Source: Dehalococcoidia bacterium
Lineage (GTDB): Bacteria; Chloroflexota; Dehalococcoidia; Lucifugimonadales; UBA3495
DNA: 64,000 bases
Assembly: GCA_965232815.1 (NCBI GenBank)
Contig: OZ247427.1
Location: 724,846-788,845 of the forward strand
Direction: 5' to 3'
The first letter of the stretch is position 1; each line of letters starts with the position of its first letter. The notes beneath the pieces were generated by a model. That model did no database searches, was not told where the DNA came from, and saw only the letters and a program-made list of their open reading frames with translations. A program made the position numbers and the translations under genes. Positions 26,626 through 58,492 of the stretch are shown piece by piece.

Positions 26626-27795
26626 CTAATCGTCCCCACCTACCAGCGCGGCCTCCCGGCCGGAAAACTCGGGCATCACTTCGGACGAGAAGATCGACAA
26701 CTGATCCTTGAACTCACTCCACGGCATTCCCTCGGGCCACTGGAGCACGATGTCCTCCAACCCCGGGTACTTCTCCTCGGTCTCCCGCAGGAAGTCGATG
26801 AAGTCGCCGGGCGAGCCGCAGAACCAGGCTTTCTGCGCGACGCCGTCCTCAACGCGTGGAGTGCGCGCCGGCGCGCCGGGCGTTCCCCATGGCCGGCCCT
26901 GTTCGTCGGTGTACCGCACGAATCCAAAGGGCGCGAACCACTTGTATCGCTCGTCGTGGAAGGGGCGGACCCGCTCGATGGCTTCCTCCCGGCTGCCGGC
27001 AATGTAGAAGCCGAAGCCCAGGGCCATGTCGCCGCCCAACGGGATGTCGCGGCCGGCGGCCACCGCGGCAGAGTGATACTGGGAGATCATCTGCTCGGCG
27101 TACAGTTCGCCGGTGAGGGCCACCATGGCCTTGATGCCGCGCTCGGCGATGTAATTCAGCGTGCGCCCGCTGGCGATGGGCTGCCAGATCTCCACTGGTT
27201 TATTCACCGGCCGCGGCACCATCGTGATTTCTTTCAGGTCGTAGCCGCGATAGGGTACGGTCGGCGGGATGGTGTAGTACTTGCCCTGGTGGCTCCAGGA
27301 CTCCTCGTTGAACGCCTTGAGGATGACCTCCATCTGCTCCAGGAACAACTCACGGTTGGCGTCGTTGTCGATCACCGGGGACCCGAACGTCTCAACCTCG
27401 CGGGAGTGGTAGCCGCGGCCGACGCCGAAAATCATCCGGCCGCCGGTCAGGATGTCTGCCATCGCGAAGTCCTCGGCGATGCGCAGCGGATGCCACATCG
27501 GGATGATGTTGAAGGCCTGCCCGAATTTCAGGTTCTTGGTCTGTCCGGCCAGGTGCACGCCCATGAGGATCAGGTTGGGGATGCACTCGTAGCCCTCGTG
27601 CTGGAAGTGGTGCTCGGCCATCCACATGCAGTAGAAACCGCGCTCGTCCATGTGCTGGGCCAGCGCCTGGGCGTGGTCGTATGCCTGGGCCAACTGCTCG
27701 TTGGAGTAGCGACGCTGGTCGGGTGGCGTGCCGTCCGCGCCGACGTTATCCAGGTCAATCTGCCCCACGTACAAAACCGAAAACCGCTTAATCAT
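26626..27795 (-). CDS. LLM-class (luciferase-like) flavin-dependent oxidoreductase
   Basis: MIKRFSVLYVGQ..., ..FYCMWMAEHHFQHEGYE.IPN.., ..GRMIFGVGRGYH.REVETFG.. are typical of the LLM family. Confidence 0.8.
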   Translation of the reverse strand: MIKRFSVLYVGQIDLDNVGADGTPPDQRRYSNEQLAQAYDHAQALAQHMDERGFYCMWMAEHHFQHEGYECIPNLILMGVHLAGQTKNLKFGQAFNIIPMWHPLRIAEDFAMADILTGGRMIFGVGRGYHSREVETFGSPVIDNDANRELFLEQMEVILKAFNEESWSHQGKYYTIPPTVPYRGYDLKEITMVPRPVNKPVEIWQPIASGRTLNYIAERGIKAMVALTGELYAEQMISQYHSAAVAAGRDIPLGGDMALGFGFYIAGSREEAIERVRPFHDERYKWFAPFGFVRYTDEQGRPWGTPGAPARTPRVEDGVAQKAWFCGSPGDFIDFLRETEEKYPGLEDIVLQWPEGMPWSEFKDQLSIFSSEVMPEFSGREAALVGGDD

Positions 27796-36357: not shown

Positions 36358-37275
36358 ATGGTCAAGTTTTCCTTCCGTCTCCCCAACGCCGACTACCTCG
36401 GTTTCCCGGCCACCACCGATGCCATTCTCCAAACCGCCCTCAAGGCCGAAGAGGCCGAGTTCGACGCGCTCTTCGTAAATGACCACGTGATTGTGGACGA
36501 CGGAGCACGCAGCGAGCCCTGGCGTAACGTGTACGACCCCTTCATGACCCTGGCCTACGTGGCAGCGCGAACCTCGCGGATTCGGTTGGGCACCTCGGTG
36601 CTGATCATGCCCTACCGGAACCCCGTCGTAACCGCCAAAATGGTGGCGACCCTGGACCAATTGTCCAACGGACGCGCCATCGTCGGCGTGGGATCGGGCT
36701 GGAACGAGACCGAGTATGCCGCGCTGGGCGTGCCTCGCAACGAACGTGGCGCGCGCACCAACGAGTACCTGCGCCTCTGGAAGGCGTGCTGGGAGCCTGA
36801 CCCAGTGTCCTTCAACGGCCGGTTCTTCTCCTTCGACGGCCTGCACACCAGCCCCAAGCCGGTGCAGCAGCCCCACCCGCCCATCTGGATCGGCGGGTCC
36901 AGCCATGCCTCCCTGCGGCGGGCCGCCCGCTTCGCCGAGGTGTGGCAGCCGACACCGACGCCGCTGCCCACCCTGGTCAGCAACTCGCAGTACCTCAACG
37001 ACGTGTCCGCCGAGATCGGGCGCGAGGAGCCGCCCCGGGTGCGCATGAGTTTCAGGGTCATCGTCAGCGGCATCACCGGCGTCTCCGCCTCTGGGAGCGA
37101 CCGTCCGCCGGGTCTGGGCACCCCGGAGCAGATCGCCTCGGACATCAACCGCTACCGACAGGAGGCCGGGCTCGAGGAGTTCCAGCTCAACTGCCACGAG
37201 TGCGGCAGCGTGCAGCAACTGTTGGACACCATCGACGCGCTGACCCAGGAAATAATTCCCAAGGTGGATGCTTAG
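36358..37275 (+). CDS. LLM-class oxidoreductase (F420-dependent-type subfamily likely)
   Basis: The inner ATG 36358 gives MVKFSFRLPN...AEEAEFDALFVNDHV.., ..RIRLGTSVLIMPYRNPVVTAKMVATLDQLSNGRAIVGVGSGW...EY.ALG...ERG.R..EYL.. Confidence 0.75.
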   Translation: MVKFSFRLPNADYLGFPATTDAILQTALKAEEAEFDALFVNDHVIVDDGARSEPWRNVYDPFMTLAYVAARTSRIRLGTSVLIMPYRNPVVTAKMVATLDQLSNGRAIVGVGSGWNETEYAALGVPRNERGARTNEYLRLWKACWEPDPVSFNGRFFSFDGLHTSPKPVQQPHPPIWIGGSSHASLRRAARFAEVWQPTPTPLPTLVSNSQYLNDVSAEIGREEPPRVRMSFRVIVSGITGVSASGSDRPPGLGTPEQIASDINRYRQEAGLEEFQLNCHECGSVQQLLDTIDALTQEIIPKVDA

Positions 37276-50907: not shown

Positions 50908-50954
50908 GACGACTACGAAATGCAGCCCACGACCGCACCCCGGGAGGGATGAAA

Positions 50955-52079
50955 ATGGCCAAGATGGATTTTGGATTGTTCACCACTTGGAACGCCGTCT
51001 ACGAGGGCGACAAGGTCCCCTGGGACCCCGAATATCAGGGCGGCAAGCTCCTGGAAGCCGAAGCCTACAAGCAGAACTTCAAAGAGATCGACCACATCGA
51101 GGACGCCGGCTGGGACTACGTCTGGTTCGGCGGCGGTCACTTTTCCACCCAGGGCAGCATGGATCCCCAGTCCCTGATGCTGTCCGCGGTCATCGCCAAC
51201 CACACCAAGAACATCAGGATCGGCACCTCCATCCACCGCCCGACCCTGCGGTTGCCCGGCGAGACCGTATCTGAGCGGGCGCTGCCTCACGAAAGGTACG
51301 CCTTCGACAACCTCCAGCTGGAGGACCCTTTCCAGGTAGCGGAACAGGTCGCCATAGTTGACCAGGTCAGCGAAGGCCGGTTCATATACGGCCCAGGAGC
51401 CCGCACTCGCGGCTCCGACGAACGCCGGGAGTACTTCTACGAGTACCTGGAACTCCTCAAGCAACTCTGGGATGAGGACAGCTTCTCCGGATTCGAGGGC
51501 AAATACTTCAACTATCCCGCTTTCTATGAGAGCTACATGAGCATTCCCAAACCGGTGCAGAAGCCCATGCCCTTGCTGCTCCCAGTGGACAGCCAGGAAA
51601 GCTTCGTGCCCATGGGCGAGCATGGCTATCGCATCGCCATCGGGGCCGGCAGTTCCCCTCACAACCTGCGGGGTTCCGCCGTCCTTCGCCAGGACGTCCA
51701 AGCCTACCGCCAGGCCTACATAGATGGTGGGCATGAGGGCGATCCCACCACTGTGGTCCGGGTGCCCACCCTCGTCGCCGACACCAAGGAAAAAGCCGAC
51801 CGGCGCGTCGAGAATCTCATGGATATGGCCCGGATTTACTACGCCGGCCGCCTCGCCATCGGCAGCACCGACGCCGGCAGCGCGGGCCCCGAAGCCACCC
51901 AGGAGGTCAACCTCTTCGGCACTCCGGAAGAGGTCGTCGAGAAGATCCACATGTTCCGAGAGGCCTTCACCACCGACGAGATCATGTTCGAGTGCAACTG
52001 GACATCATCCGTCCCCCGCGATGTGGTGATGGACACCCTGAAGTGCCTCTCCGATGACGTGATACCGCACTTCAAGTAG
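50955..52079 (+). CDS. LLM-class flavin-dependent oxidoreductase
   Basis: GGGAGGG lies 6 nt upstream of ATG 50955 (MAKMDFGLF..). The motif ..WDYVWFGGGHF.. and the overall LLM TIM-barrel pattern are paralogous to 26626-27795 and 57359-58492. Confidence 0.8.
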   Translation: MAKMDFGLFTTWNAVYEGDKVPWDPEYQGGKLLEAEAYKQNFKEIDHIEDAGWDYVWFGGGHFSTQGSMDPQSLMLSAVIANHTKNIRIGTSIHRPTLRLPGETVSERALPHERYAFDNLQLEDPFQVAEQVAIVDQVSEGRFIYGPGARTRGSDERREYFYEYLELLKQLWDEDSFSGFEGKYFNYPAFYESYMSIPKPVQKPMPLLLPVDSQESFVPMGEHGYRIAIGAGSSPHNLRGSAVLRQDVQAYRQAYIDGGHEGDPTTVVRVPTLVADTKEKADRRVENLMDMARIYYAGRLAIGSTDAGSAGPEATQEVNLFGTPEEVVEKIHMFREAFTTDEIMFECNWTSSVPRDVVMDTLKCLSDDVIPHFK

Positions 52080-52104
52080 ACCAACCCAAATGTCCATGGG
52101 ACGC

Positions 52105-52137
52105 AACGCCGGGCGACTTTGATCGCCCGGCGTTTTC
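52105..52137 (+). terminator. Rho-independent terminator
   Basis: A perfect 12-bp stem AACGCCGGGCGA-ctttga-TCGCCCGGCGTT runs into a TTTT tract, 26 nt after the stop at 52079. Confidence 0.8.
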
Positions 52138-52206
52138 ATGCTCAAATCACATGGCGCGCCCATGTGCTAAACTACGCCCATCACCACTCCATGGAGCACC
52201 GACGCC

Positions 52207-53334
52207 ATGACTAGCACCACTAAAGACCCCATCCTCGTCGTCATCCAACTCACTGGTGGAAACGACTATCTCAACACCGTCATCCCTTACGCCGACGGTC
52301 GCTACCACGATAGCCGGCCCACCGTCGGCATCCCTGCCGACCAGGTACTTCCCATCGATGACCAGTTCGGCTTCAACCCTGCCGCATCGGAAATCAAGGC
52401 GCTCTACGACGCCGGCAAGGTCGCCGTCATCAACGGCGTCGGCTATCCCACACCCAACCGTTCCCACTTCCGCAGCATGGACATCTGGCACACCTGCGAG
52501 CCGGAAAAGGTCGGCACAGAGGGCTGGCTGGGCCGCGTCATACGCGACATCGACCCCCACGCCGAAAACGTGCTCACCGGCGTCAACTTCGGCCGCGGCC
52601 TCCCCCGCGCCATGGCCCTGACCGGCGTGCCCGTCGCTTCTGTGGCCGTGCTGGAAACCTACGGCGTCCTCACCGGAATCGCCGGCGAACCCGAGCGCTC
52701 CCAGGCCCTCGACATATTCGCCCGCATGTACTCCCCCACCGTCGGCCTCGGCGCAACCATGGACTACCTCGGCCAGACCGGCCTCGACGCCCTCAAGGGC
52801 GCCGACATCCTGAAGGCCGCTCCGGAGATGTACACATCCTCCGTCGAGTACGCTGATACCGGCATCGCCCGCAACCTCCAGGGCATTGCAAAAGTACTCA
52901 CCGCCAACTTGGGCACCCGCGTCTTCTACACCCAGCAGGGCGGTTATGACACCCACGCCAGCGAGGCCGACGTCCATCCCAAACTGCTCGGCGACCTCAG
53001 CCGCGCCGTCAGCGACTTCTACGCCGACCTCCGCGAGCACGACGCCGCCGACAACGTCGTCATGTTCGCCTTCACCGAGTTCGGCCGCCGCGTCAAGGAC
53101 AACGGAAGCGGTAGCGACCACGGCAGCGGCGGAGTGGCTTTCGCCATCGGCGATCCGGTCCGCGGCGGCATGTACGGCGCATACCCGTCCCTTGCCGAGA
53201 ACGACCTCGTCGAAGGCGACCTGGCCTTCAACACCGACTTCCGCGGCGTGTACGGCACCCTGGTCGAACAGTGGCTCGGTCTGGATGCAAAACCAGTCGT
53301 CGGCGGAACGTTCGAACAGCCGGCGTTCGTCTAA
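52207..53334 (+). CDS. DUF1501-family (sulfatase/phosphatase-fold) protein, no recognisable Tat/Sec signal
   Basis: ..LVVIQLTGGNDYLNTVIP.., ..YPTPNRSHFRSMDIWHT.., ..QGGYDTHA.., and ..FTEFGRRVKDNGSGSDHG are DUF1501 hallmarks. Confidence 0.75.
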   Translation: MTSTTKDPILVVIQLTGGNDYLNTVIPYADGRYHDSRPTVGIPADQVLPIDDQFGFNPAASEIKALYDAGKVAVINGVGYPTPNRSHFRSMDIWHTCEPEKVGTEGWLGRVIRDIDPHAENVLTGVNFGRGLPRAMALTGVPVASVAVLETYGVLTGIAGEPERSQALDIFARMYSPTVGLGATMDYLGQTGLDALKGADILKAAPEMYTSSVEYADTGIARNLQGIAKVLTANLGTRVFYTQQGGYDTHASEADVHPKLLGDLSRAVSDFYADLREHDAADNVVMFAFTEFGRRVKDNGSGSDHGSGGVAFAIGDPVRGGMYGAYPSLAENDLVEGDLAFNTDFRGVYGTLVEQWLGLDAKPVVGGTFEQPAFV

Positions 53335-53344
53335 GGAACCCGGT

Positions 53345-53764
53345 GTGACGTCAACTCAACAAAAAGCGGAGCGGTGGATCATATTGCCCGGATCAACCGT
53401 CGGGGGTGAAGTGGGCATTTTCAGTGTTGATTTCACCATTCGACACCGTAACGGAGACAAAACACATGCTCTGAATGGCGTGGTCGACTCTGGCTCTTCT
53501 TTTGTGATCATCCCAGATCACGTGCTCGATGAAATGGGTGTCGAGCGGGAAGATCAGGCTTTGTTCAGGCTTGCCGACGGTTCCGTGCGCGAAATGTCCA
53601 TCGGGGAAACTTTGTTGGATCTGGACGGCAGGACGAAAACTGTTCAGGTGGTCTTTGGTACGGACACCCGCAAGGTGCTGCTGGGTGCCATGGCCCTGGA
53701 AGCGTTCGGTTTGGCGGCCGACGCTAAAAACCACCGGCTCATTCCTGCAGAGTTGACCCTCTAA
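53345..53764 (+). CDS. Retropepsin-like clan AA aspartic protease (small single-domain type)
   Basis: ..ALNGVVDSGSSFVIIPDHVLDEMGV......F.LADGSV.....GE..LDLDGR.....VVFG.....LLGAMALEAFGL..D contains the D-S/T-G active-site triad (VDSGSS). The start is uncertain (GTG 53345 or GTG 53411). GC is lower (47 per 100 nt at 53421-53520). Confidence 0.6.
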   Translation: MTSTQQKAERWIILPGSTVGGEVGIFSVDFTIRHRNGDKTHALNGVVDSGSSFVIIPDHVLDEMGVEREDQALFRLADGSVREMSIGETLLDLDGRTKTVQVVFGTDTRKVLLGAMALEAFGLAADAKNHRLIPAELTL

Positions 53765-53775
53765 CGCACCTACAG

Positions 53776-54972
53776 ATGACTATTCACATCGACGGCAACG
53801 GTTCTGCCCAACCATCATCTGGCGCGGCAATCTACGTCGACACCGAGAACCTGCGGGACTCCGACCACGCACAGAACCTGGTTGACCGGATCGTCGCCGA
53901 CTGGCCATGGGATCACGCTCCGCTCGGCAGCCTGTCTCTCTACGTTCGGGCCGACCGCGTCGCGAGCTGGGAGATGTGGGCGGAGGCCGCATACCCCGAT
54001 CTGCGGGTCAGAGTACGCGGCGTCCAGCACTTCACCAACAACAAGGCCAAGAATTCGGCGGATCTGGCGATAACCGCAGACGCCGTGGCTGATCTCGTCA
54101 CCGGCCAGGCCAACGCGGTCGCGGTGGTGAGCAACGACAGCGACTTCGGAGCGCTGTTCGTCAAGGTCAAGGAACTCGCGCGGTCCGTCGGCGTGGAGCC
54201 AACGCCGTTTCTGTGGATCACGTCGCCGGAAGCAGGCGGCCTGTCATCTGAATTGGAACGCTTCATACCGCAGAGCCTGCGTTGGGATCTGTCGGAATCT
54301 GACCGGCCATCGATCGCAGCAGAGCCGCGTGAGAAAGCCCAACCGGTCCCGCCGCAATTGCCTGTTTCGGAACGTCCTGCCGCATTGCCGGCGGCGCCCC
54401 AGCCCGAGTCCTCAAAATCGCAGAACGAGGCCATCGCGGATGAACTGATTCGCCGTCTCCCTGTCGGGCGGTTCAAAGCTGCCGACGCACATCAGGTGGT
54501 CAGGGCGCATTGGCCTGACCATCCGTCCGCCGGGGAGGCCGCCAGGGTGGGGCAGTTCCTGCTCAACGAACTCTGGCCCATCCTGCAAAAACGCGGCGTC
54601 ACCATGCCCCGCAAGAGTTCCCCCCGTACCTACGAGATAACCCAGGCAGCCAAAGACACGCTGGCCAAACCGATAGCCCGGCCGGCGCCGGACGCGAAAC
54701 CCTCCCCTGAACTCACGCCCGCGCAGTTGGCCGCATCCGTCACCAGCGGCATACCCGACGATATTTTCAAAGCGTCGGACGCTCAGAGCGCCCTCAATAA
54801 TCTGCGGCCCGATCATCCCGCCGCGTCCTATACGGCCACCCAATTCGGCACCTGGTTCGCGAAACAACTCTGGCCGATCATGGAGCAGCACGGCGTCGTC
54901 CTCGCCAGCGAAAAGCCGCGGCGTTATGAAATGACTCCCGACGCCCGCCACCGCCTGACCGCTCTCGCCTGA
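53776..54972 (+). CDS. NYN (LabA-like, PIN-related) nuclease-domain protein with two tandem roughly 80-aa C-terminal repeats
   Basis: The NYN core is AIYVDTENL..., ..KNSADLAITADAV.., and ..VAVVSNDSDFGALF... The C-terminus carries two copies of the pattern P...FKA.DA.......PDHP.A......G.....LWPI....GV......PR.YE.T..A...L. Confidence 0.7.
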   Translation: MTIHIDGNGSAQPSSGAAIYVDTENLRDSDHAQNLVDRIVADWPWDHAPLGSLSLYVRADRVASWEMWAEAAYPDLRVRVRGVQHFTNNKAKNSADLAITADAVADLVTGQANAVAVVSNDSDFGALFVKVKELARSVGVEPTPFLWITSPEAGGLSSELERFIPQSLRWDLSESDRPSIAAEPREKAQPVPPQLPVSERPAALPAAPQPESSKSQNEAIADELIRRLPVGRFKAADAHQVVRAHWPDHPSAGEAARVGQFLLNELWPILQKRGVTMPRKSSPRTYEITQAAKDTLAKPIARPAPDAKPSPELTPAQLAASVTSGIPDDIFKASDAQSALNNLRPDHPAASYTATQFGTWFAKQLWPIMEQHGVVLASEKPRRYEMTPDARHRLTALA

Positions 54973-55082
54973 CCTCAATCCTCCAGCGGCTGCAATATCG
55001 GTCGCCGGCTTACGTGGTATCCCACTGCGCCGCCAGGCGCGCATATCCACTTTTTTGTGACTTCCGTGCGTTGACGCCCCTG

Positions 55083-55099
55083 TGTTCAATCATTGAACA
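55083..55099. promoter_or_regulatory. Perfect 17-bp palindrome TGTTCAAT-C-ATTGAACA at the 5' end of the radical SAM gene (candidate operator)
   Basis: I read it directly from the sequence: 8-nt arms that are exact reverse complements around one central base. It overlaps the first possible start codons of the downstream ORF. Confidence 0.35.
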
Positions 55100-56577
55100 T
55101 GGGTTCGTCAATGTCGGCGGACTACCATCCCATCCCGCCGACTGGGAGCCATGCAATCATGCTCATCAAACGCACACCGGACCGCTACGACAAACTCCAC
55201 ATCCTCGGCGGTATGGCCGCCTCCGACGACATCCTCACCGGCGGCAAGCCCGACGCGGGACCGTCGTACGACCACAAATTCGCCAGCGGCTACGCCACCA
55301 GCGGCCCCAACCGCATCGCATACTCCGACCCCCGAAAAAACCCGGCTCCGGGCATCTACAAGTCCAGCTTGCCCAACGGCAAAAAGGTGAACCTCCTGCG
55401 CGTCATGTTCACCGATTTCTGCAAGATGGACTGCGCCTATTGCCCCAACAGCATCTACGTCCCACGTAAACGCTACGCCTTCAAGCGCGAGGAACTCGCC
55501 GACACTTTCATGGAACTCCACAATCGCCTCGCCGTCGATGGCCTGTTCCTCAGCTCGGGAATCGCGGGCGACGGCACCAGGACCACCCAGCACATGGTCG
55601 AAACAGTGGAGATCATCCGCAAGAAGCACGGATTCAAAGGCTACGTCCACCTCAAGGTCATGCCCGGCGCGTCTCGCGAACTCGTCGAACGTGCCCACAG
55701 CCTGGGCAGCCGCCTTTCCGTCAACATCGAAACCCCTGAGCCCGACATGATGCGACGCATCAGCCCGCACAAAGACTTGCAGAAGGATATCCTCGACCCC
55801 ATGGCCTGGATCAATGAGCTTACTGCGAACAGCAGTGGCGGCGCGGTCGGCCAGGCCACCCAGTTTGTCGTCGGCGCCGCGGATGAGTCCGACCGCCAGA
55901 TCTACAGCCGGGTCGACCAGATGTACACCGACTGGAACCTCAAGCGCGTCTACTACCCGCCTTTCCGGCCCGCCATGCACACACCCATGGAGGAAAAGCC
56001 GCCGGTCCACGCCGGCCGCGAGCATCGCCTCTACCAGATGGATTGGTTGCGTAGGGTCTACAACTTCGCGTCCGACGAAATTGATCTGGCCTTCGACCAC
56101 GGCGGCTTTCTTTCGCTGGAGCAGGATCCCAAAACGGTCATCGCCATGGAGAACCTCGACGCCTTCCCCATTGACCTCAACTCCGCCACCCGCGACCAAC
56201 TCTTGCGTATCCCAGGTATCGGCCCCGTCTCAACCGGCCGGATACTGGAAAACCGCCGTCGCCACACCATCGACAACTGGCGCGACCTCCAGGCCATGGG
56301 CGTCGTCCGCAAGCGCGCCTGGCCCTACGTCGTATTCCCGGGCCAGCGTCCACCGTCCGGGCGTCAGCTTCGCATGGACCTTTTCGGCGAGGCGCAGGAC
56401 CGCCGTGCCGCCGAGGCCGACGGAGTCAGCCTCCCGCCGCCCAAATCGCCAACCCTCTCGTCAATCATGGAAACTCCCGCGACCTACACCGCCGACCACG
56501 CCTGCATCCCCGGCAGCAGGGGAGCGATGTGCGCGGCTTGCCCGGTCATGCGTCCGGAACCGGCCCCTTCACCGTGA
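55093..56577 (+). CDS. Radical SAM protein of the putative DNA modification/repair type (TIGR03916-like) with helix-hairpin-helix
   Basis: The CxxxCxxC is in FCKMDCAYCPN. Other motifs are ..GLFLSSGI.., ..YVHLKVMPGAS.., ..LSVNIETP.., and the HhH ..DLNSATRDQLLRIPGIGPVSTGRILENRR... The start is uncertain (TTG 55093, or ATG 55099, 55111 or 55159). Confidence 0.75.
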   Translation: MNMGSSMSADYHPIPPTGSHAIMLIKRTPDRYDKLHILGGMAASDDILTGGKPDAGPSYDHKFASGYATSGPNRIAYSDPRKNPAPGIYKSSLPNGKKVNLLRVMFTDFCKMDCAYCPNSIYVPRKRYAFKREELADTFMELHNRLAVDGLFLSSGIAGDGTRTTQHMVETVEIIRKKHGFKGYVHLKVMPGASRELVERAHSLGSRLSVNIETPEPDMMRRISPHKDLQKDILDPMAWINELTANSSGGAVGQATQFVVGAADESDRQIYSRVDQMYTDWNLKRVYYPPFRPAMHTPMEEKPPVHAGREHRLYQMDWLRRVYNFASDEIDLAFDHGGFLSLEQDPKTVIAMENLDAFPIDLNSATRDQLLRIPGIGPVSTGRILENRRRHTIDNWRDLQAMGVVRKRAWPYVVFPGQRPPSGRQLRMDLFGEAQDRRAAEADGVSLPPPKSPTLSSIMETPATYTADHACIPGSRGAMCAACPVMRPEPAPSP

Positions 56578-56624
56578 TAAACTGCAATACACTTACGGAT
56601 ACCCCCGCACGAAAGGTTGACGCC

Positions 56625-56861
56625 ATGACGCCGTCTTACATCGACAGGATCACGATTGAACCGGGCAAGCGCAGCGGCCAACCCTGCATTCGCAACATGC
56701 GAATCACCGTCGATGACGTTCTGGAATACCTGGCCGGCGGAATGACCGAGGAAGAAGTCCTGGCAGATTTCCCCTACCTGGAGGCCGAGGATATTCTGGC
56801 CTGCCACGAATTCGACGCCCTCCGTAAAAAGCGCATCGTGTCCTTATCAAGGTACCAGTAA
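56625..56861 (+). CDS. DUF433-family antitoxin-like protein
   Basis: The inner ATG 56625. ..ITIEPGKRSGQPCIRNMRITVDDVLEYLAGGMTEEEVLADFPYLEAEDILAC.. is the DUF433 signature. Confidence 0.75.
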   Translation: MTPSYIDRITIEPGKRSGQPCIRNMRITVDDVLEYLAGGMTEEEVLADFPYLEAEDILACHEFDALRKKRIVSLSRYQ

Positions 56862-56872
56862 CGGCAATTGCG

Positions 56873-57205
56873 GTGAGGTTGCTCTACGATCACAACCTTT
56901 CGCCAAAACTGACGACGATTCTTCAAGATGTGTACCCACAGTCGGTGCATGTGTACTCAATCGGCCTGGAAAAATCTAGCGATGATGCGATTTGGGAATA
57001 CGCCAGAACCAACGGTTTGGTGATAGTCACCAAAGACGCTGATTACCTTGCCATCAGCGCTCAGCTTGGACATCCTCCGAAAGTAGTTCGCATTGGGTTG
57101 GGGAACGGCCCAACGGTCGTTGTCGCCGAGTCGCTTAGATTCCATCACCCTGAGTTGCTGAGATTTTTCGAAGACCAGGGCAGCGCTTTCATCGAATTGC
57201 GTTGA
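56873..57205 (+). CDS. DUF5615-family PIN-like putative toxin
   Basis: MRLLYDHNLSPKL...L......VH.......SDDAIWEYARTNGLVIVTKDADY.. fits DUF5615 (Mut7-C/PIN-like). It lies 11 nt after the DUF433 stop. GC is lower (48 per 100 nt at 56881-56980). Confidence 0.7.
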   Translation: MRLLYDHNLSPKLTTILQDVYPQSVHVYSIGLEKSSDDAIWEYARTNGLVIVTKDADYLAISAQLGHPPKVVRIGLGNGPTVVVAESLRFHHPELLRFFEDQGSAFIELR

Positions 57206-57308
57206 ACACACGCGCGGATCCTCTGCCAGATCACAGGCCCTCCCTCCGCGAACACATGCGCCTTTTGAACGGCAGCCCTGTCAACCGACCGGGCTCTGCA
57301 CATGACGC

Positions 57309-57317
57309 TGGTATAAT
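57309..57317 (+). promoter_or_regulatory. Candidate extended -10 promoter element TGgTATAAT
   Basis: TG-n-TATAAT is read at 57309-57317, 42 nt upstream of GTG 57359, which itself follows GGAGG at 57344-57348. No good -35 is present. Confidence 0.4.
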
Positions 57318-57358
57318 CCTGCCCACCTGATTGCAACGCCACCGGAGGCCACCACCCC

Positions 57359-58492
57359 GTGAAAAGCTACTACTTCTCCGAGTTTCCCTACCACGAATAT
57401 CCCGACGAAGAGGGCGACAAGTATCCATCCCTTCGTCTGACCTTCCCCAACACCTGGTTCAACCCCAACACGGCAAACGGCCTCTTCAAGCGCTACTTCG
57501 ACGAGTGCGTGTACGCCGACGAACTCGGATTCGACGGCATCATGCTCAACGAGCACCACAACACGCCGTCCTGCATGAACGCGGCCACCAACCTTTCGGC
57601 CGCCGTACTTGCCCGCATCACCCACCACTCCAAGATCCTCCTCCTCGGCAACATCCTGCCCATCCACGACAACCCGGTACGCCTCGCCGAAGAGTTGGCC
57701 ATGATCGACGTCATATCCGGCGGCCGCCTCATCTCAGGTTTCGTCCGCGGCACCGGCGTCGAAACCGTGTCCACCAACAACAACCCCGTCGCCAACCGCG
57801 AGCGCTTCGAGGAGTGCCACGACCTCATCATGAAGACCTGGACCACTCCCGGGCCATTCCGCTGGGAAGGCAAGCACTACAACTTCCGCGTGGTCAACCC
57901 ATGGATGGTCCCCATCCAGCAGCCACATCCTCCCATCTGGGTCCCGGGCACCTCGTCGCCCGAAACCGCCGAGTGGTCCGGCCAGCATGGGTACACCTAC
58001 GTCGCCTTCCTCACCGACCTCGATGTAACCGAGGAACTCTTCGGCATGTACACCCAGGCGGCCAACGCTGCCGGCCGAGAGGCCGTCCCAGACAACTTCG
58101 GCTACCTCCTCTGCTGCTACGTCGGCGACACTCAGGAGGAAGCGGACGAACAGGCCAGGCACTTCATCTGGCGGATGGGTCCCACCGTACGGGGCCCCCG
58201 CGAGTACATGGCTCCGGTCGGCTACCGTTCCGCCGCCGGCGCCGCCATCGCCGCCCGGCGCTCCGGCCTCAAGCCCCTCAACGTGCAGACCTTCGAGGAA
58301 CTCAAGGAGAACTACCACATCGTCTGCGGCACTCCCGACACCGTCCTCGAAAAGCTCGAATACCTCCACGGACGGCTGGGCATGGAACACCTCGTCTTCT
58401 ACGGACAGGAATCCCGCATGGGCCACGAGGCCACCATGAAAAACATCGGGCTATTCGGCAAGGAAGTCCTCCCCGTCATCCAGAAGTGGTAG
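57359..58492 (+). CDS. LLM-class flavin-dependent oxidoreductase
   Basis: ..FDGIMLNEHHNTPSCM.., ..GRLISGFVRGTG.E.. and an overall pattern paralogous to 50955-52079. GTG start. Confidence 0.8.
   Translation: MKSYYFSEFPYHEYPDEEGDKYPSLRLTFPNTWFNPNTANGLFKRYFDECVYADELGFDGIMLNEHHNTPSCMNAATNLSAAVLARITHHSKILLLGNILPIHDNPVRLAEELAMIDVISGGRLISGFVRGTGVETVSTNNNPVANRERFEECHDLIMKTWTTPGPFRWEGKHYNFRVVNPWMVPIQQPHPPIWVPGTSSPETAEWSGQHGYTYVAFLTDLDVTEELFGMYTQAANAAGREAVPDNFGYLLCCYVGDTQEEADEQARHFIWRMGPTVRGPREYMAPVGYRSAAGAAIAARRSGLKPLNVQTFEELKENYHIVCGTPDTVLEKLEYLHGRLGMEHLVFYGQESRMGHEATMKNIGLFGKEVLPVIQKW

Follow-up and report, generated by a model that had tools for sequence, protein, structure and literature searches.

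Bacterial LabA-like proteins, also called LK-nucleases, consist of an NYN domain (PF01936, COG1432) and one or two OST-HTH/LOTUS domains (PMC2848206; PMC5499597), and nearly all bacterial OST-HTH proteins are built in this way: a DUF88/NYN 'LK-nuclease' forms the N-terminal part, and the OST-HTH domain follows singly or twice (PMC2848206). The bacterial OST-HTH domain has a structural representative in 2kpm, and an extended insert between helix 2 and helix 3, in common with archaeal CDC6, has been described as a LOTUS feature (PMC2848206). Among small clan AA retropepsin-like proteases, APRc of Rickettsia has been characterised (PMC4140852). The present work concerns two adjacent genes in a 64,000-nucleotide stretch of the genome of a sponge-associated Dehalococcoidia bacterium of the SAR202 clade (contig OZ247427.1, positions 724,846 to 788,845; this whole stretch is called the window, and positions are counted from its first nucleotide). 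One encodes a small retropepsin-like aspartic protease and the other an NYN protein with two C-terminal modules, each with a predicted fold of the winged helix-turn-helix type (wHTH). An earlier note, made from the sequence of this stretch, had suggested that the repeat may be a new nucleic-acid- or ligand-binding module and that the protease and the RNase may work as a pair. The first suggestion is supported by the data described below, and the second is not. We consider it reasonably probable that the NYN-(wHTH)2 protein is a lineage-restricted variant of the LabA/LK-nucleases that carries unnamed winged-helix modules, and that the protease is a separate accessory neighbour rather than a conserved partner.

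The open reading frame (ORF) of 398 codons that begins 11 nt after the protease gene, with its AIYVDTENL, NSADLAITAD and VVSNDSDFG motifs, was found as the earlier note had described it. Its N-terminal part matches the Pfam NYN family over residues 17-138 (E = 3e-8; 34.7 bits, the gathering score being 24.2), and of the 120 homologues listed for the protein, 119 carry a precomputed PF01936 match. Fourteen positions of the domain are invariant in 24 aligned homologues, namely the acidic residues D22, E24, D60, D96, D102, D106, D121 and D123, together with N25, N93, S94, S119, N120 and S122; the catalytic positions among them were assigned by motif (YVDxEN, NSADxAI and SNDSDF) and not by structure. 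Such invariance of the acidic residues makes an active nuclease likely. The NYN domain would probably act as a metal-dependent endonuclease, with RNA as its most likely substrate. Searches of the whole protein against NCBIfam, PADLOC and PHROGs gave no useful match, the sole one being phrog_37744, of function not known, on the NYN core. By median isoelectric point the NYN domain is acidic (4.7), module 1 basic (9.5) and module 2 close to neutral (7.8). The Pro/Ala-rich linker reported to follow the core is present as well; among homologues its length ranges from 26 to 45 residues and its identity is 0.29, and the linker between the modules is similarly variable (12-53 residues, identity 0.24).

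The two C-terminal units can be aligned with each other by BLASTP (35% identity over 78 residues, E = 5e-14). Both copies are kept in all 24 aligned homologues, and no other part of the protein is as well conserved as copy 2, with 0.75 identity to homologues. Two AlphaFold2 models were built, one of the C-terminal 189 residues from an alignment of 37 homologues and one of a single unit from 21 unit sequences; their overall predicted local distance difference test scores (pLDDT) were 88 and 93. The former shows two independent compact domains (pLDDT 91-96) with a disordered linker between them, and the latter reached a pLDDT of 92.9 and a predicted TM-score of 0.82. The domain borders in the model (54406-54666 and 54718-54966) agree to within about 15 nt with the two tandem copies of about 80 residues that had been read from the sequence at 54421-54670 and 54710-54960. 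In the models, each module has the topology H1-S1-H2-h-H3-S2-S3-H4, that is, a canonical wHTH with an extra C-terminal helix, a helix 3 of 18 residues and a short helix or insert between helix 2 and helix 3. The motif set of the module comprises W-P-x-H-P, F-G, L-W-P, G-V and P-R-x-Y-E.

A Foldseek search of the PDB and of viral models returned only winged-helix proteins, with E-values of 0.01-0.2 and TM-scores of about 0.5; forkhead, DsrD, SSV1 F-93, PadR, Fur/Zur/PerR, MukE/JetB, Stn1, Cdt1 and MarR were among them, and the top matches were all DNA- or RNA-binding winged helices. At these values the fold is recognised without any single family being singled out. The C-terminal half of the protein has no family match in Pfam, NCBIfam, PADLOC or PHROGs, so that the repeat is indeed unrecognised, as the earlier note had it. 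The 21 isolated units gave only scattered single matches, none of them to OST-HTH, when compared with Pfam at E-values up to 10, and PDB sequence searches with the module profile and the whole-protein profile gave chance methyltransferase matches (E of about 0.7) or nothing. The repeats might also have turned out to belong to a known domain with an established function. They do share a known fold, the generic winged helix, but match no family with an established function. We regard the module as a previously unnamed, predicted winged-helix domain family.

The distribution of the module points in the same direction. When its profile was scored against 1.84 billion representative proteins, clustered at 50% identity, it was found in only 114 clusters, 79 of them at E < 1e-10. 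It lies nearly always C-terminal to this NYN subfamily, in one to three copies. Among 70 longer module proteins, most (about 270-320 residues) have a single copy, those of SAR202 have two, and several with a length of about 490 residues have three. Pfam recognises an NYN domain in 59 of these 70, and an NYN profile built from the family detects it in nearly all of them. Six module proteins have no NYN domain, and two of these are fused to other nuclease domains, P0160 to the PIN-like DUF5615 and P0163 to the restriction-endonuclease-like HSDR_N. The simplest explanation for a module that occurs almost only C-terminal to nuclease domains, of three different folds, is that it binds or targets nucleic acid, and its most likely role is to hold or select the substrate. 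P0160 comes from a Tara Oceans contig. DUF5615, one of only two domains other than NYN seen in fusion with the module, is also encoded in the window, 1.9 kb downstream of NYN.

The full-length NYN protein has 287 homologue clusters; the best 120 of these are about 355-430 residues long, and those among the best 120 with a named source come from Chloroflexi, Chloroflexota or Dehalococcoidia. A scan of species-representative genomes yielded 54 loci, 50 of them in Dehalococcoidia of the SAR202 clade, including sponge-derived metagenome-assembled genomes (MAGs), and four in Limisphaerales, which encode a shorter NYN protein with one module. Similarly, the module proteins that could be traced to named genomes belong to Dehalococcoidia (SAR202) and Limisphaerales MAGs, several of them from sponge metagenomes. 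The proteins of the four Limisphaerales (Verrucomicrobial) loci (L049, L050, L051 and L054) are 42-48% identical to the SAR202 protein, one of the genomes has two copies, and the accessions of these genomes resemble those of many SAR202 genomes. These observations suggest that the NYN-module gene was transferred horizontally between the SAR202 and Limisphaerales lineages. A three-module NYN protein of 492 residues (L055:5001-6479) is encoded between pdxS (SOR_SNZ) and pdxT (SNO), where it splits an otherwise standard gene pair.

It thus appears possible to sketch how such a protein might work. The N-terminal NYN (PIN-like) domain would cut RNA in a metal-dependent manner, the flexible Pro/Ala linker would join it to the two small winged-helix modules, and these modules most likely hold or select the nucleic-acid substrate. 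The OST-HTH/LOTUS domains that ordinary bacterial NYN proteins carry, singly or in duplicate, have been proposed to do likewise. The protease would be a neighbour in one lineage, probably co-transcribed in the window and functionally separate.

This last point depends on the gene neighbourhood. In Dehalococcoidia the two genes lie in a syntenic block that runs from a luciferase-like monooxygenase gene and a DUF1501 gene, through a variable islet, to a radical SAM gene and another luciferase-like monooxygenase gene. The islet, between DUF1501 and radical SAM, holds zero to four retropepsin-like genes, an optional SWIM gene and one or two NYN-wHTH genes. Identity to the window is 85-98% for the flanks, 48-80% for the NYN protein and 25-82% for the protease, and the substitution rates differ accordingly: the median nonsynonymous divergence (dN) is 0.29 for NYN, 0.45 for the protease and 0.025-0.09 for the flanks, and the synonymous divergence (dS) is 1.4, 2.0 and about 0.7, respectively. 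Compared with their flanks, the protease and NYN genes evolve 3-10 times faster; at dN/dS ratios of 0.21 (NYN) and 0.22 (protease), as against 0.03-0.09 in the flanks, both are fast-evolving and yet subject to purifying selection. Their raised dS is a hint that alleles have been replaced. The view of the earlier note that both genes sit in an accessory stretch stands for the protease, the NYN gene and the downstream toxin-antitoxin pair, which are variable or fast-evolving, and fails for DUF1501, radical SAM and the luciferase-like monooxygenases, which are conserved and syntenic at 85-98% identity; DUF1501 and the monooxygenases are core-like.

To see how firmly the protease is tied to the NYN gene, retropepsin-like ORFs were counted with a family hidden Markov model (HMM) in the 50 SAR202 loci and in loci outside this clade. 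Three SAR202 loci have no such ORF, 24 have one, 13 have two, nine have three and one has four. A protease gene is directly upstream of NYN, that is, within 150 nt, in 31 of the 50; a SWIM gene intervenes in nine, and a larger gap or an extra NYN paralogue in seven. Outside SAR202, none of the six informative loci (the four of Limisphaerales, L055 and L057) has a protease-like ORF within 4-5 kb of the NYN-module gene. The two genes were therefore found together only in a single Dehalococcoidia block, and the 47 SAR202 loci with an upstream protease, all from one syntenic lineage, count as one lineage-specific event. In the window itself, the 11-nt gap and the lack of a terminator make co-transcription plausible, and the protease gene is probably co-transcribed with NYN. 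A literature search gave no relevant report of NYN proteins with retropepsins or of retropepsin-like proteins in bacterial defence, and PADLOC had no match for the NYN protein or the module and only PDC-M08B, at E = 0.017, for the protease.

SWIM-like ORFs lie upstream of NYN in about 21 of the 50 Dehalococcoidia loci, often between the last protease gene and NYN; the window has none. Examples of this SWIM zinc-finger gene (about 142 codons; Pfam SWIM, E = 2e-7 to 7e-6) are found at L001:4570-5004 and L022:2508-2936, both on the plus strand. A second, divergent NYN-wHTH paralogue (23-33% identity) stands immediately upstream of the main copy at L037:4371-5354, L043:4323-5249, L048:3696-4865 and L052:4008-4943. 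The radical SAM gene (76-94% identity) is downstream in only about 30 of the 50 loci and is replaced by housekeeping genes in L008, and it was accordingly rejected as a partner of NYN. Pairing of the protease with DUF1501 was rejected too: in L053 the protease gene stays beside DUF1501, in L010 beside NYN, and hence neither link is fixed.

The protease ORF, for its part, starts with GTG, 7 nt downstream of an AAGGA motif, and was confirmed with the VDSGSS motif, the lower GC content (47 per 100 nt at 53421-53520) and the end at 53764 that had been noted. Its VVDSGSS motif contains the triplet D48-S49-G50 and is followed by VLLGAM, which supplies the hydrophobic-hydrophobic-Gly motif. Three family matches, to gag-asp_proteas (PF13975; E = 2.5e-5, 25.2 bits against a cut-off of 28.2), Asp_protease_2 (PF13650; E = 1.8e-4, 22.6 against 24.3) and the clan AA family TIGR03698 of NCBIfam (E = 2.2e-10, 40.8 against 57.35), are all significant by E-value yet below the curated cut-offs. 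Homologues fall into 391 clusters, many of them at 60-80% identity and with precomputed PF13650 or PF13975 matches. By analogy with its small clan AA relatives, the protein presumably acts as a homodimeric aspartic protease. Its orthologues have D-T-G at the catalytic triplet, and D-T-R, N-A-Q or S-T-G takes its place in many of the islet's paralogues (for example L001:3762-4181, L006:3350, L009:3375 and L023:4432). Paralogues of this kind are likely to be inactive subunits, and the probable inactivity of those that lack the catalytic glycine makes heterodimers of active and inactive subunits possible. In some genomes the copies next to NYN are only 28-49% identical to the window protease, and paralogues with 63% identity to it are found at other sites of these genomes. 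Variable copy number and position, absence outside the block and the presence of closer paralogues beside unrelated genes all indicate that the retropepsin-like genes behave like an accessory family with multiple copies, which settle in variable islets of sponge-associated SAR202 genomes. The 63% paralogues (L060:5001-5420 and L062:5001-5420) occupy another such islet, which lies between hydantoinase genes A and B and is also packed with Uma2, SocA_Panacea, PaREP1 and an MTase-Mrr_cat-NA-iREase1 fusion; this islet looks like a hotspot of defence and toxin-antitoxin genes in SAR202 genomes.

Several other explanations have to be weighed against the one preferred here. The protein might be an ordinary LabA-like NYN-LOTUS RNase whose modules are highly divergent OST-HTH/LOTUS domains missed by current models. 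As the published NYN plus OST-HTH architecture (PMC2848206) is identical to that of the window protein, with its NYN (DUF88) domain and its single or duplicated C-terminal wHTH, this link was tested directly. An approximate LOTUS consensus, used only to retrieve real sequences, returned 2kpm and 2kzv; the real 2kpm fragment then gave 67 bacterial LOTUS (PF12872) proteins, whose alignment served as the LOTUS profile for hhalign. Comparison with the module profile gave a probability of 0.5% over 11 columns, a weak test in that both profiles are shallow. PF12872 matched neither the whole protein nor any of the 21 module sequences even at E-values up to 10, and the solved bacterial LOTUS structures 2kpm and 2kzv were outside the top 50 Foldseek matches for either model. 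The impression of the earlier note that the repeats do not resemble the LOTUS consensus agrees with this lack of a link by HMM, profile-profile comparison and Foldseek, and the helix 3 of 18 residues also speaks against LOTUS. The fold class is the same, including an insert with a short helix that separates helix 2 from helix 3, and, read by eye, W-P-x-H-P...F-G-x-F-L is loosely like the bacterial LOTUS P-D-F-D...Y-G-x-x-K-L; on the whole, we find a LOTUS origin of the module unlikely. A little less improbable, though still doubtful, is that the NYN-wHTH protein serves this SAR202 clade as a housekeeping enzyme of RNA processing, and that its faster evolution reflects no more than weaker constraint. 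Its fixed chromosomal position in 50 genomes, usually as a single copy (in four loci the islet holds a second NYN gene), the purifying selection, the GC content near the genome average, the position of the three-module relative between pdxS and pdxT and the housekeeping genes that follow NYN in L008 would all fit such a role. The very narrow taxonomic range (114 clusters), the apparent transfer into Limisphaerales and the extra paralogues in some islets do not, and dS is raised as well (1.4 compared with 0.7 in the flanks), which suggests allele replacement rather than simple vertical descent.

The view that the protease and NYN genes are neighbours without a shared function also faces contrary observations. 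They are 11 nt apart on one strand with no promoter or terminator between them, which is operon-like; their adjacency is kept in most SAR202 genomes, with a protease gene directly upstream in 31 and somewhere upstream in 47 of the 50 loci; both evolve fast, with dN/dS ratios well above those of the flanks; and both families expand in the same islet (zero to four proteases, one or two NYN genes), which could mean a joint role in genetic conflict. The two, or the three together with the SWIM gene, might then form a conflict system for defence or of the toxin-antitoxin kind, in which the protease would switch the nuclease on or off, for instance through cleavage of the Pro/Ala linkers by which the modules are tethered; the linkers are long, variable and disordered, and in the window the islet lies beside a DUF433/DUF5615 toxin-antitoxin pair. 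Yet the pairing is seen in one syntenic lineage only and amounts to a single evolutionary event, none of the six informative loci outside SAR202 has the protease, three SAR202 loci lack it, and further ones have a SWIM gene or a distance of more than 1 kb between it and NYN. Moreover, the closest protease paralogues adjoin unrelated genes, many paralogues lack the glycine of the DTG triplet, and the best PADLOC match is not significant. Taken together, these points make a protease-nuclease conflict pair quite improbable in our estimation. Less probable still, and put forward here as little more than speculation, is that the whole islet between DUF1501 and radical SAM is a new defence or addiction module in which the protease, possibly as an active/inactive heterodimer, would cut the NYN linkers and the modules would sense or target foreign nucleic acid. 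We therefore retain the reading of the NYN-(wHTH)2 protein as a lineage-restricted nuclease with an accessory protease gene next to it.

The features of the locus are collected in Table 1.

Table 1. Coordinates of the protease and NYN genes, their parts and the neighbouring genes in the window.
Feature	Position (nt)	Strand	Basis or remark
End of DUF1501 gene	53334		Next gene upstream of the protease ORF
Gene for small retropepsin-like (clan AA) aspartic protease, 139 aa	53345-53764	+	ORF; Pfam and NCBIfam matches below curated cut-offs
Catalytic-type D-S-G triplet of the protease (D48, S49, G50)	53486-53494	+	Read directly in the sequence
11-nt spacer from protease stop (53762-53764) to NYN start	53765-53775	+	No Shine-Dalgarno-like motif
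Gene for NYN-(wHTH)2 protein, 398 aa, ATG at 53776	53776-54972	+	ORF
NYN (LabA/LK-nuclease type) domain, residues ~14-175	53815-54300	+	Pfam PF01936
Pro/Ala-rich variable linker, residues 176-210	54301-54405	+	Pro + Ala fraction 0.51
Predicted winged-helix module, copy 1, residues 211-297	54406-54666	+	AlphaFold2 single-domain model
Variable inter-module linker, residues 298-314	54667-54717	+	pLDDT <50
Predicted winged-helix module, copy 2, residues 315-398	54718-54969	+	Alignment to copy 1; two-domain AlphaFold2 model
Radical SAM gene	55093-56577	+	TIGR03916-like
DUF5615 gene (PIN-like toxin of the DUF433/DUF5615 pair)	56873-57205	+	1.9 kb downstream of the NYN gene

In its base composition the protease gene stands apart, with a GC fraction of 0.47 over 53421-53520 and 0.543 over the whole gene, compared with 0.62-0.65 in its neighbours. 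At third codon positions (GC3) the values are 0.61 for the protease gene, 0.58 for the DUF5615 toxin gene, 0.74 for the NYN gene and 0.82-0.86 for the flanking genes; the overall GC content of the NYN gene is near the genome average. A scan of 52000-57500 for promoters and terminators found nothing that exceeded the shuffled expectation and no such site in the 11-nt spacer, and no further copies of the protease or NYN gene were found within the 64 kb of the window. The radical SAM gene and the toxin-antitoxin pair that the earlier note had placed downstream are both there. The DUF433/DUF5615 pair occurs in only about 3 of the 50 SAR202 loci, has a low GC3 and is accessory. The radical SAM protein scores 285 bits against TIGR03916, under the cut-off of 343.5, and has a C-terminal helix-hairpin-helix; homologue alignments suggest that its true start is near 55159 (MLIKRT...). 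TIGR03916 is a putative DNA modification or repair radical SAM family whose genes normally go together with one for a UDG-like protein; in the window, no such partner is apparent close by. At least four luciferase-like monooxygenase paralogues are encoded in the window, at 26665-27690 (-), 36406-37260 (+), 50949-52079 (+) and 57359-58492 (+), which fits the expansion of flavin monooxygenases described for SAR202.

A small unnamed family of predicted winged helices that occurs, in the few lineages to which it could be traced, almost exclusively on nuclease domains (NYN, and rarely DUF5615 or HSDR_N) merits a new model in the domain databases, and the idea that it serves as a substrate-recognition unit, in parallel to LOTUS in the RNases of LabA and MARF1 type, gives a clear biochemical hypothesis. 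A well-defined substrate is not known for any bacterial NYN protein (PF01936), and a compact NYN-(wHTH)2 protein with confident models is therefore a reasonable test case. For sponge-associated SAR202 bacteria, the locus adds a fast-evolving islet in which retropepsin-like, SWIM and NYN genes expand together. The data at present lend no support to the notion of a protease that activates an RNase, and annotations should not carry it forward.

How does this locus compare with the systems already described? The protease resembles other small bacterial and archaeal clan AA retropepsin-like proteases in having a protease fold of about 130-140 residues with D-T/S-G followed by hydrophobic-hydrophobic-Gly. 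It differs from them in scoring below the curated cut-offs and in belonging to a family that is multi-copy in these genomes, with many paralogues that lack the glycine of DTG. APRc has a membrane anchor; in the window protease, inspection of the sequence by eye revealed none. The NYN protein, in turn, shares with the eukaryotic MARF1/Limkain b1 (NYN, RRM and LOTUS repeats) the combination of an NYN endonuclease with tandem winged-helix repeats thought to bind RNA, but MARF1 is a eukaryotic protein with bona fide LOTUS repeats and RRMs, and no sequence relationship was found beyond the NYN superfamily. The bacterial LabA-like proteins and LK-nucleases come closest: they, too, have an N-terminal NYN domain with conserved acidic residues, linker-joined C-terminal winged helices (one or two, and up to three in the family described here), no conserved gene neighbourhood across taxa and the predicted character of a standalone RNA-degrading enzyme. 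Unlike theirs, the module of the window protein is unmatched by PF12872, shows no LOTUS similarity in profile-profile comparison and has neither 2kpm nor 2kzv among its top Foldseek matches; it belongs to a tiny family of 114 clusters at 50% identity and is set apart by its own motif set, its 18-residue helix 3 and its extra C-terminal helix.

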